From contig CM097885.1 in NCBI GenBank assembly GCA_044892525.1, forward strand, positions 7,132,001 through 7,196,000: a stretch of DNA of 64,000 nucleotides, given 5' to 3'. The stretch is from Schmidtea polychroa (Eukaryota). How positions within the stretch are numbered: the stretch's first letter is position 1; each line of letters begins with the position of its first letter. Both the position numbers and the translations under genes were made by a program. Positions 13,051-14,194 of the stretch are shown in pieces. The notes under the pieces were generated by a model. It was given only the letters and a program-made list of their open reading frames with translations, had not been told where the DNA came from and made no database searches.

Positions 13051-13645
13051 CTTAAGGTTTTGAAAGTTTTAAAAATAAAAAATTTTATGAAAATAGTAAA
13101 ACTGCTCTGAGGGGACAGTGGTATTTTTTTTTTTTTTTTTTTTTTTTTTCACTGTCCCCTCAACAGTTTTTTTTGATCCGGATCATTTTTTTTTTATTTA
13201 TCAACCTCTTTCGTTTATCAAATCTCTTCCAATATACAAGCTGGCCAGACTCATACATCAGAATCAATCCGATAATAGCAGCACGCCTTATTATTCGCTT
13301 CTCGCTCACGAAGTCGATTTCAACGGCGTTTTAAGCGTGCTGCTCGAAAGTACAAATGAATTCGAAAGCGAATCCGAAAGAGGTCCGAAAACAACCAAGA
13401 AATAAATGTGCACATTATAGAATCGATCCGGGGGTGTTCGAAAGACAGGTGGCGATAATTACCGGTTCGCCACCATCACCCGTTTCAATATTTTTTTTTT
13501 CATATTTATGTTTAAAAAATAATTAATTAATAAAAAAATAAAATAAAATAAAATAAATAAAATAAAATATACAAGTACTTTATAAATATAAGATACCCAC
13601 ACTATTATTTTCAAATTTTTAATATTATTTTATGTTGAAAAAAAA

Positions 13646-13720
13646 CTAACCACAGTTAGGATTTGAACCGCTATCTATTTGAACCACTGTGCCGGTCTAG
13701 CCCACTGCGCCATCAAGGTT
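13646..13720 (-). ncRNA. tRNA-like Pol III unit 1
   Basis: Minus strand: A box TGGCGCAGTGG, B box GGTTCAAATCC, followed by a T8 terminator. Confidence 0.55.
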
Positions 13721-13886
13721 TGAATTTTTGTCATTTTTTAGACTATAAATAATCGATTCAAGTTAAAACGTTTTTGATCTTAAATTTCCAAGAGTTGCCG
13801 TTGACCAATCACCTTTAAAATTTGTACAAGTACTAAATCGAGTATGCTGATCAATATTTTGTTTAAAAAAAAAATTTGAAAAAAAA

Positions 13887-13960
13887 TGACCGAAATGGGA
13901 TTTGAACCCATTGGTATTGGCAATGCAGTCGAGTGCTATTACCACTAAGCTATACTCAAT
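13887..13960 (-). ncRNA. tRNA-like Pol III unit 2 (5' half resembles tRNA-Cys GCA)
   Basis: GAGTATAGCTTAGTGGTAATAGCACTCGACTGCA..., T arm ATGGG-TTCAAAT-CCCAT, then T8. The anticodon stem does not pair. Confidence 0.6.
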
Positions 13961-14120
13961 ATGAAATAAGTTGTTAATGTGTGACTATTTATTGATGAAA
14001 TTAATAATTAATTATTCATTTTCTCGACAACTACCACTCAGATCCATCTGAAAATTTAAATATATACTAAAATCAGTACGCTGAATCAGATTCCGTTGAA
14101 AAAAAAATATCGAAAAAAAT

Positions 14121-14194
14121 TGACCAAAATCGAAAATTGAACCCGGTACTCCCGGTGATAAAATTGAAGCCTATTCCCACTCCGCTATAATGGC
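14121..14194 (-). ncRNA. tRNA-like Pol III unit 3 (more degenerate)
   Basis: A box TAGCGGAGTGG, degenerate B box GGTTCAATTTT, downstream T7. It also contains internal T4 runs. Confidence 0.4.

Follow-up and report, generated by a model that had tools for sequence, protein, structure and literature searches.

The VA RNAs of adenoviruses are about 160 nt long and strongly double-stranded, carry their promoter boxes within the gene, and have a proposed tRNA origin (PMC7589676). The TMERs of MHV68 consist of a tRNA and hairpins that are co-transcribed and then separated by RNase Z, and the EBERs of EBV are highly structured (PMC4378190). In Leishmania, the A and B boxes of an adjoining tRNA-like unit drive the U2 snRNA gene, and the unit is itself transcribed (PMC4950102). 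tRNA genes are on record from Polinton-like viruses, virophages and MELD viruses (PMC12220804 and PMC8502044), the former study counting 558 Rfam tRNA hits in 8300 genomes. Here we describe a cassette on an animal Polinton that comprises three short tRNA-like units (U1, U2 and U3) and, downstream of U3, a stretch of about 390 nt with a strong predicted fold. Judged by its sequence, the cassette is real and element-encoded, and is a variant of the Pol III-type non-coding cassettes of viruses. We propose, with a confidence that falls a little short of even, that U1-U3 are element-borne, tRNA-derived copies of a type-2 Pol III promoter that would act as landing sites for TFIIIC and Pol III, and that U3 serves the adjoining ~390-nt candidate RNA.

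The 64,000 nucleotides analysed (the window) come from an AT-rich animal genome of 781 Mb, perhaps that of a planarian, and contain an intact Polinton of the adintovirus type at 3603..31684, with no strand assigned. Its termini read AGTAGT...ACTACT, and the 6-bp target-site duplication ACTATT flanks it at 3597-3602 and 31685-31690. It has the long terminal inverted repeats and 6-bp duplication of Polintons and adintoviruses, together with their protein-primed PolB polymerase, integrase (here in a PLA2-like/integrase protein), A32 ATPase and double-jelly-roll capsid protein. The major capsid gene (14251..15543, plus strand; PF21738, E 6e-26) stands back to back with the cassette, and its closest relatives are 73-75% identical. 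The family is very abundant and also young: of 2371 candidate matches for the 701-bp unit region, the 40 that were scored were all about 100% identical, and a capsid search of the genome gave 3213 candidates. Several features of the surroundings may be recorded here. The left terminal repeat is broken by a 5.3-kb insertion (7430-12717) with perfect inverted arms of 2373 nt, and a 39-nt stretch present in both terminal repeats (6326-6364 and 28761-28799) is 82% identical to the 5' (Alu) end of the host SRP RNA. An 87-aa ORF at 22587-22850, directly downstream of the polymerase, duplicates its C-terminal portion. Beyond the Polinton, 32379-62315 is an LTR retroelement of about 30 kb with gag, a viral fusion-glycoprotein domain, ankyrin repeats inside pol, and TRAF/MATH- and RING-type accessory ORFs, which we take to resemble the giant gypsy elements of planarians.

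The initial annotation had placed three diverged minus-strand units, about 237 bp apart and each with an A box, a B box and a T run, just upstream of the capsid gene and opposite to it, and this architecture is present. U1 (14113..14194, minus strand) has its A box at 14187-14177, an imperfect B box at 14143-14133 and a T7 run at 14119-14113; U2 (13879..13959, minus strand) has its boxes at 13952-13942 and 13908-13898 and T8 at 13886-13879; U3 (13638..13719, minus strand) has them at 13712-13702 and 13669-13659, with T8 at 13645-13638. Successive A boxes are 235 and 240 bp apart, the capsid ORF begins at 14251 on the plus strand, and any two units agree at 37-45 of 74-75 columns. All three thus have the layout of a type-2 Pol III gene, with A and B boxes at tRNA spacing and oligo-T, apart from the imperfect B box of U1; in each, the T7-T8 run follows within 2 nt, and the unit finishes in GGTYA ahead of it. 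The combined pattern of A box, B box and T run is not a product of chance, because it occurs four times in the window (U1-U3 and once at 2405) and not once in 200 doublet-shuffled windows, and because the strict pattern has 2820 forward matches genome-wide against none for the reversed control. These forward matches may include host tRNA genes, and the reverse-strand count of 7860 is inflated by overlapping matches.

The units are not equivalent. U1 is the weakest, since its B box ends in TTT in place of TCC and three T4 runs lie inside it. U3 holds a second, A/B-like stretch between its A and B boxes. The spacers downstream of U1 and U2 are homologous (alignment score 86.5 vs 50.3+-6.8, reached by 0 of 500 shuffles), and that of U3 aligns to neither; the arrangement is therefore not a simple triplication, and on these alignments U1 and U2 look like a tandem duplication.

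U2 had been noted to resemble tRNA-Cys in its 5' half, and it matches the host tRNA-Cys at 45 of 74 columns; the matches take in almost the entire span from the D arm to the GCA anticodon and also the B box. U1 and U3 match the same tRNA at 37 and 33 of 74 columns. By sequence, U2 is a worn copy derived from the host tRNA-Cys. One tRNA-Cys pattern had no match; another by itself has 1000 matches in the host genome, in which the tRNA-Cys, SRP, U6 and tRNA-Lys genes form long tandem arrays (C1:269.25 Mb, C2:31.93 and 142.94 Mb, C4:76.66 Mb). None of the three units is a tRNA gene. ARAGORN finds no tRNA in the window, and the Rfam tRNA model touches U2 alone, at 26.7 bits (E 0.016), below its 29-bit cut-off. 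The annotated lack of a proper anticodon stem is borne out: three of the five anticodon-stem pairs of U2 are broken, as is its acceptor stem, its D and T arms being able to pair, and U1 and U3 are unfolded. Against shuffled sequences, U1 and U3 fold no better than chance (z +0.32 and +1.33) and U2 modestly better (z -2.35). Among copies of the element, the 5' acceptor strand of U2 and of U3 has been swapped without any change in the 3' strand, so the tRNA fold is not being maintained.

These properties bear on the possibility that the short unit RNAs are themselves the product, as tRNA mimics or precursors of tRNA fragments akin to the tRNA-like portions of the TMERs of gammaherpesviruses. Every unit is as long as a tRNA and is followed by a terminator of its own, the GGTYA motif precedes all three T runs, U2 retains its two arms, and U1 and U2 are nearly invariant, with 9 versions in 51 copies and 11 in 55. 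Against this, U1, U3 and the counterpart unit of an older family (family B, below; z +0.13) have no fold, and the acceptor strands of U2 and U3 have been replaced on one side only. Nor is a hairpin co-transcribed ahead of the terminator as in TMERs, and U1 and U2 are absent from many copies that look intact. We consider this explanation rather improbable.

tRNA-derived SINEs have a tRNA-derived head with A and B boxes and reach thousands of copies. The thousands of genomic matches to the units would fit a dispersed host SINE or satellite that had inserted into the Polinton; their surroundings do not. All 28 places with the strict pattern that precede the window on contig C1, which cover the first 7 Mb of one chromosome, lie in Polinton DNA, with Polinton proteins inside the fetched 5 kb at 26 of them. 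The units are thus part of the element, as first proposed, and not a dispersed host repeat. They show no A tail, target-site duplication, 3' body or independent insertions, their flanks are common to the copies, and their copy number comes from the Polinton. A SINE or satellite origin was accordingly rejected, and we discount it almost completely.

Across 89 loci, some of which overlap or were chosen through the units themselves, U3 was found in 87, U1 in 51 and U2 in 53; 13 loci have two copies of U3, and the number of units per copy varies from one to three or more. By eye, some subfamilies (L051 and L071) have a short, charged, coiled-coil-like ORF upstream of U3, between it and the capsid gene or U2, that the copy in the window does not have. 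Another set of elements (L113 with L243-L244, L121-L122 and L127-L128) combines a capsid 94-99% identical to the window's with a different polymerase (49-67% identical by segment) and has an outward-facing U3 and folded stretch at either end, an instance of module exchange between Polinton lineages. Eight loci beside a divergent polymerase, once taken for a separate third family, proved to be the right-hand ends of elements with a capsid at least 94% identical to that in the window.

The pattern of variation in U3 points to its promoter boxes as the part that matters. In loci picked through the capsid protein alone, U3 was present in 29 of 30 (40 copies, 34 distinct versions), and variation was 0.003 in the boxes against 0.121 elsewhere, a contrast equalled by none of 20000 position permutations, which is not a strict probability because the versions of U3 are related. 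The contrast persists in a sample biased against boxes, namely 23 loci chosen through the folded stretch and without the strict pattern (0.040 vs 0.109; 385 of 20000 permutations). A counterpart at the same position in an older Polinton family was also found. A decayed fragment of the older family B lies in the window at 2280-2715 and carries, at 2396..2477 on the plus strand, a unit that has the A box, B box, T run and 5' flank in common with U3 around an unrelated, AT-rich and unfolded middle. Since boxes, spacing, terminator and position have been kept while cloverleaf and middle were lost, it is the DNA signals that appear to be the selected feature. The comparisons support selective retention of the U3 promoter boxes, which fits Pol III genes or TFIIIC sites. 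Thirteen decayed family-B copies, compared among themselves as a control, show no such contrast (boxes 0.095, rest 0.068); this is what selection on the replicating element, with neutral drift in decayed copies, would predict.

The same data speak to the view that the units are inert tRNA pseudogenes hitch-hiking in a young, high-copy element. None of the units is a tRNA, the B box of U1 is imperfect, and the near-identity of young copies can be explained without selection; U1 and U2 show no contrast between boxes and the rest, having too little variation to show one. Inertness fits U3 poorly, since its boxes are kept while its other positions drift, and since a family ~70% identical has these boxes too. 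As an explanation it is very unlikely, and it would apply mainly to U1 and U2.

Downstream of U3, we identified a predicted structured non-coding RNA of about 390 nt (13095..13481, minus strand), whose ends are deduced. Read from 13481 to 13095, the predicted structure comprises a 5' hairpin domain, a long branched rod with two long helices, and a 3' hairpin with a run of A in its loop, behind which T runs follow. The fold is far more stable than expected (z -8.54; 0 of 100 shuffles), and the element, scanned coarsely, went below z -3.3 nowhere except in windows that overlap this stretch. It is stronger on the minus strand in five of six rows; the exception, C122, is better on the other strand by z, from 15 shuffles. 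In an alignment of 17 copies (10 of the abundant type and 7 of family B, the two being ~70% identical over this stretch), 88.7% of cells pair, against 42-47% in slid controls, and both sides have changed at 16 of 121 pairs; covariation is 0.123 vs 0.097+-0.004. RNAalifold recovers the main helices, with double changes at 10 of 64 pairs. Most of the compensatory changes separate the two families and may represent few events; further pair types do not exceed those in shuffles (460 of 500), and no more than 63-65% of cells are paired in the 5' outer stem and in one of the inner helices.

A TATA-like CATAAATA at 13503..13510 (minus strand) precedes the predicted start of the folded RNA by 29 nt, a spacing similar to that of the TATA box in the host U6 genes, and is kept in family B; a comparison by eye found no proximal element that the host U6 genes and the folded stretch evidently have in common. 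No T5 run lies inside the stretch, and T runs come straight behind its last hairpin; the absence of T5 is weak by itself, as 211 of 1108 windows of equal length in the element also have none. Protein coding was rejected: no ATG-initiated ORF of at least 60 aa overlaps the stretch, and copies differ by frame-breaking indels of 1 and 2 nt. The stretch matches no Rfam family and has no consensus B box of its own. Descent from SRP (7SL) RNA was likewise dismissed (local score 53.5 vs 57.6+-7.1 in shuffles; no Rfam hit), and canonical SRP genes are present elsewhere in the host.

Assembled contigs of possible RNA origin overlap the cassette. Contigs from runs whose RNA type is guessed, and from which no strand, ends or level can be derived, cover the folded stretch (X1, X2 and X3, from two studies) and U3 with U2 (X1 and X2). 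Their summed depth over 13142-13496 is far above that over the units or the capsid gene, although contig depth cannot rank genes and the run type is a guess. Pieces end at 13468, 13475 and 13481, near the predicted start, where reads are also cut at an adjoining repeat (13489-13575). A further contig of 226 nt, from a run labelled as another organism, covers 13271-13481 with four differences at a depth of 3.8 and may be contamination.

U3 and the folded stretch travel together. An exact 35-nt pattern from the stretch has 2474 matches in the genome, and at 47 of its first 51 places on contig C1 a U3 lies upstream; the 47 comprise 26 places (one across an insertion), 19 of 23 others, locus L244 and the window. 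The four places without U3 are truncated or lie behind rearranged flanks. From the B box of U3 to the start of the stretch the distance is 135-253 nt in 69 of 70 cases. The 5' part of the family-B counterpart of the stretch is present in the window (2629..2718, plus strand). This linkage is consistent with an extragenic, tRNA-like promoter, and linkage is no test of need. In favour of U3 serving the RNA, the stretch keeps its helices through compensatory changes and does so on the strand of U3; against it, U3 has a terminator of its own while pointing the same way as the stretch, and its distance to the start varies by more than 100 nt.

Two alternatives separate the units from the fold. In one, the folded stretch is a structured mRNA leader, or a structure formed in single-stranded DNA during replication or packaging, and the units merely lie nearby. 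Strand-displacement replication exposes single strands, and the stretch adjoins or sits within terminal repeats; in family B, some 45 nt separate its end from the start codon of the integrase. A leader is hard to reconcile with the abundant family, in which the stretch is directed into the terminal repeat and no ORF follows. Its many G-U pairs (at 16 of 121 pairs) and its exchanges among G-C, G-U and A-U favour RNA over DNA, and the TATA-like box upstream and T runs downstream give it a gene-like frame. We judge this reading decidedly improbable.

In the other, TFIIIC would bind the units as barriers or insulators, protecting the coding block against silencing or setting it apart from the element ends, and the folded stretch is expressed independently. 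Barrier activity of tDNA is established. It fits the retention of the boxes, the loss of the fold and the varying unit number, and it agrees with the many elements whose genes lie between two outward-facing sets of U3 and folded stretch, one at each end. Polintons are, moreover, targets of PIWI-guided chromatin silencing in a planarian (PMC8532177). Yet a barrier needs mainly the B box, whereas the A box, spacing, 5' flank and terminator have all been kept, and the Polinton in the window has the cassette at one end only. The units are also associated with the folded stretch regardless of the gene that follows, be it the capsid gene or the 5' or 3' end of the polymerase gene. We consider a barrier function unlikely, though not far-fetched.

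Our preferred reading, in which U3 provides the promoter of the candidate RNA, has a precedent in the trypanosomatid snRNA genes. In both, a degenerate tRNA-like unit is kept for its boxes beside the gene of a structured RNA, and another tRNA-type unit may be present upstream. The Leishmania case concerns a host gene with a divergent tRNA-Ala, for which dependence has been shown, whereas on the Polinton, a mobile element, dependence is deduced and the unit points in the same direction as the RNA, with its own terminator 100-200 nt before it (compare PMC4950102). To adenovirus VA RNAs, the likeness lies in a double-jelly-roll DNA virus as carrier, A and B boxes, a T-run terminator, a proposed tRNA origin and tandem genes. 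The boxes are here in mostly unfolded units of ~75 nt, in contrast to those described in PMC7589676, and the double-stranded candidate is separate, ~390 nt long and without a consensus B box. Rfam VA models had no match at E <=10 in 12000-16000, nor at E <=5 in five related loci. The suggestion in the initial annotation that the units are VA-RNA analogues or TFIIIC-bound sites therefore stands in part: they are element-borne and the boxes of U3 are kept, and as analogues of VA RNAs they fall short, U1 and U3 being unfolded and U2 only modestly folded. Long double-stranded stems are a trait of VA RNAs that none of the units has and that, in prediction, only the ~390-nt stretch has, which makes the adjoining stretch, absent from the initial annotation, the better double-stranded candidate. 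TMERs and EBERs are similar as clustered viral Pol III genes for non-coding RNAs, with tRNA-like heads or structured RNAs respectively. The co-transcription of tRNA and hairpin described for TMERs in PMC4378190 is not found here, where a T8 run and an AT- and T-rich spacer part the unit from the folded stretch.

From the kept Pol III signals adjoining a conserved predicted fold, we suggest that the element likely makes a non-coding RNA of its own. TFIIIC would bind the boxes of U3 and load the Pol III machinery, each unit yielding a by-product of about 75-80 nt that ends at its own T run. The local machinery, together with the TATA-like box at -29, could then start the long RNA at 13481, and this RNA would end in the T runs behind its 3' hairpin. 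U1 and U2 may have been added later as optional extras that provide more sites, through capture of a tRNA-Cys gene followed by its tandem duplication. More speculatively, the RNA could use its long helices to divert defence proteins that bind dsRNA or act with small RNAs, a decoy role also proposed for VA RNAs and EBERs. The full version of this proposal, in which the Polinton encodes an abundant, largely double-stranded Pol III RNA of ~390 nt, of a new family, that is switched on by adjoining tRNA-derived box units and blunts RNA-based host defences in a VA/EBER-type strategy, we regard as possible but doubtful.

The cassette may be confined to this lineage, because no counterpart appeared in more distant relatives. 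By motif scan, neither unit nor folded stretch was matched in 38 metagenome loci with capsid relatives 19-52% identical, most of them shorter than 2.5 kb and without element ends, or in 12 10-kb stretches that surround more distant elements of the same genome; a profile search for both over 229,728 bases gave best E values of 3 and 1.2. IMG/VR held no capsid relative, and none of its 44 matches to the unit pattern accompanied Polinton proteins; 43 of the 44 have an ordinary ARAGORN tRNA in the locus. Two other Polintons deserve mention as separate observations. In one, from a metagenome (L173:5754-6043), the region that separates a small ORF from the 3' end of the polymerase contains 15 nt that exactly match the internal box-like stretch of U3; the match was seen by eye and is absent from the profile-search output. 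Another (L152:4212-4703) has two tandem units that start with the ATAAATATGA/AAATATGA word of the TATA-like box, followed by a short hairpin.

The initial annotation had added that such units were not known to be described in Polintons. In PMC12220804 and PMC8502044, tRNA genes are reported in Polinton-like and MELD viruses, and to that extent the remark needs amending. The reported genes are, like our units, tRNA-related sequence on Polinton-type elements. They pass Rfam or ARAGORN and are read there as aids to translation, whereas the units fail both and have neither an anticodon stem nor an acceptor stem. In the literature that we searched, neither this cassette nor box-only units nor a structured RNA is described for animal Polintons; such units may be listed in Tables S11-S12 of PMC12220804.

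Polintons have been annotated almost only by their proteins, and a conserved non-coding cassette would show that they recruit the host Pol III machinery. It would also provide a living parallel to the proposed tRNA origin of VA RNAs, with a captured tRNA-Cys half-way to a bare promoter. With ~2,500 folded stretches and A/B-box units in the thousands, the Polinton could act in its host as a large TFIIIC sink and contribute a major part of the Pol III RNA. The cassette would further allow the persistence of a virus-like transposon under small-RNA silencing to be tested directly. If true, a VA/EBER-type strategy in an endogenous relative of adenoviruses could help to explain how this Polinton has reached thousands of copies.
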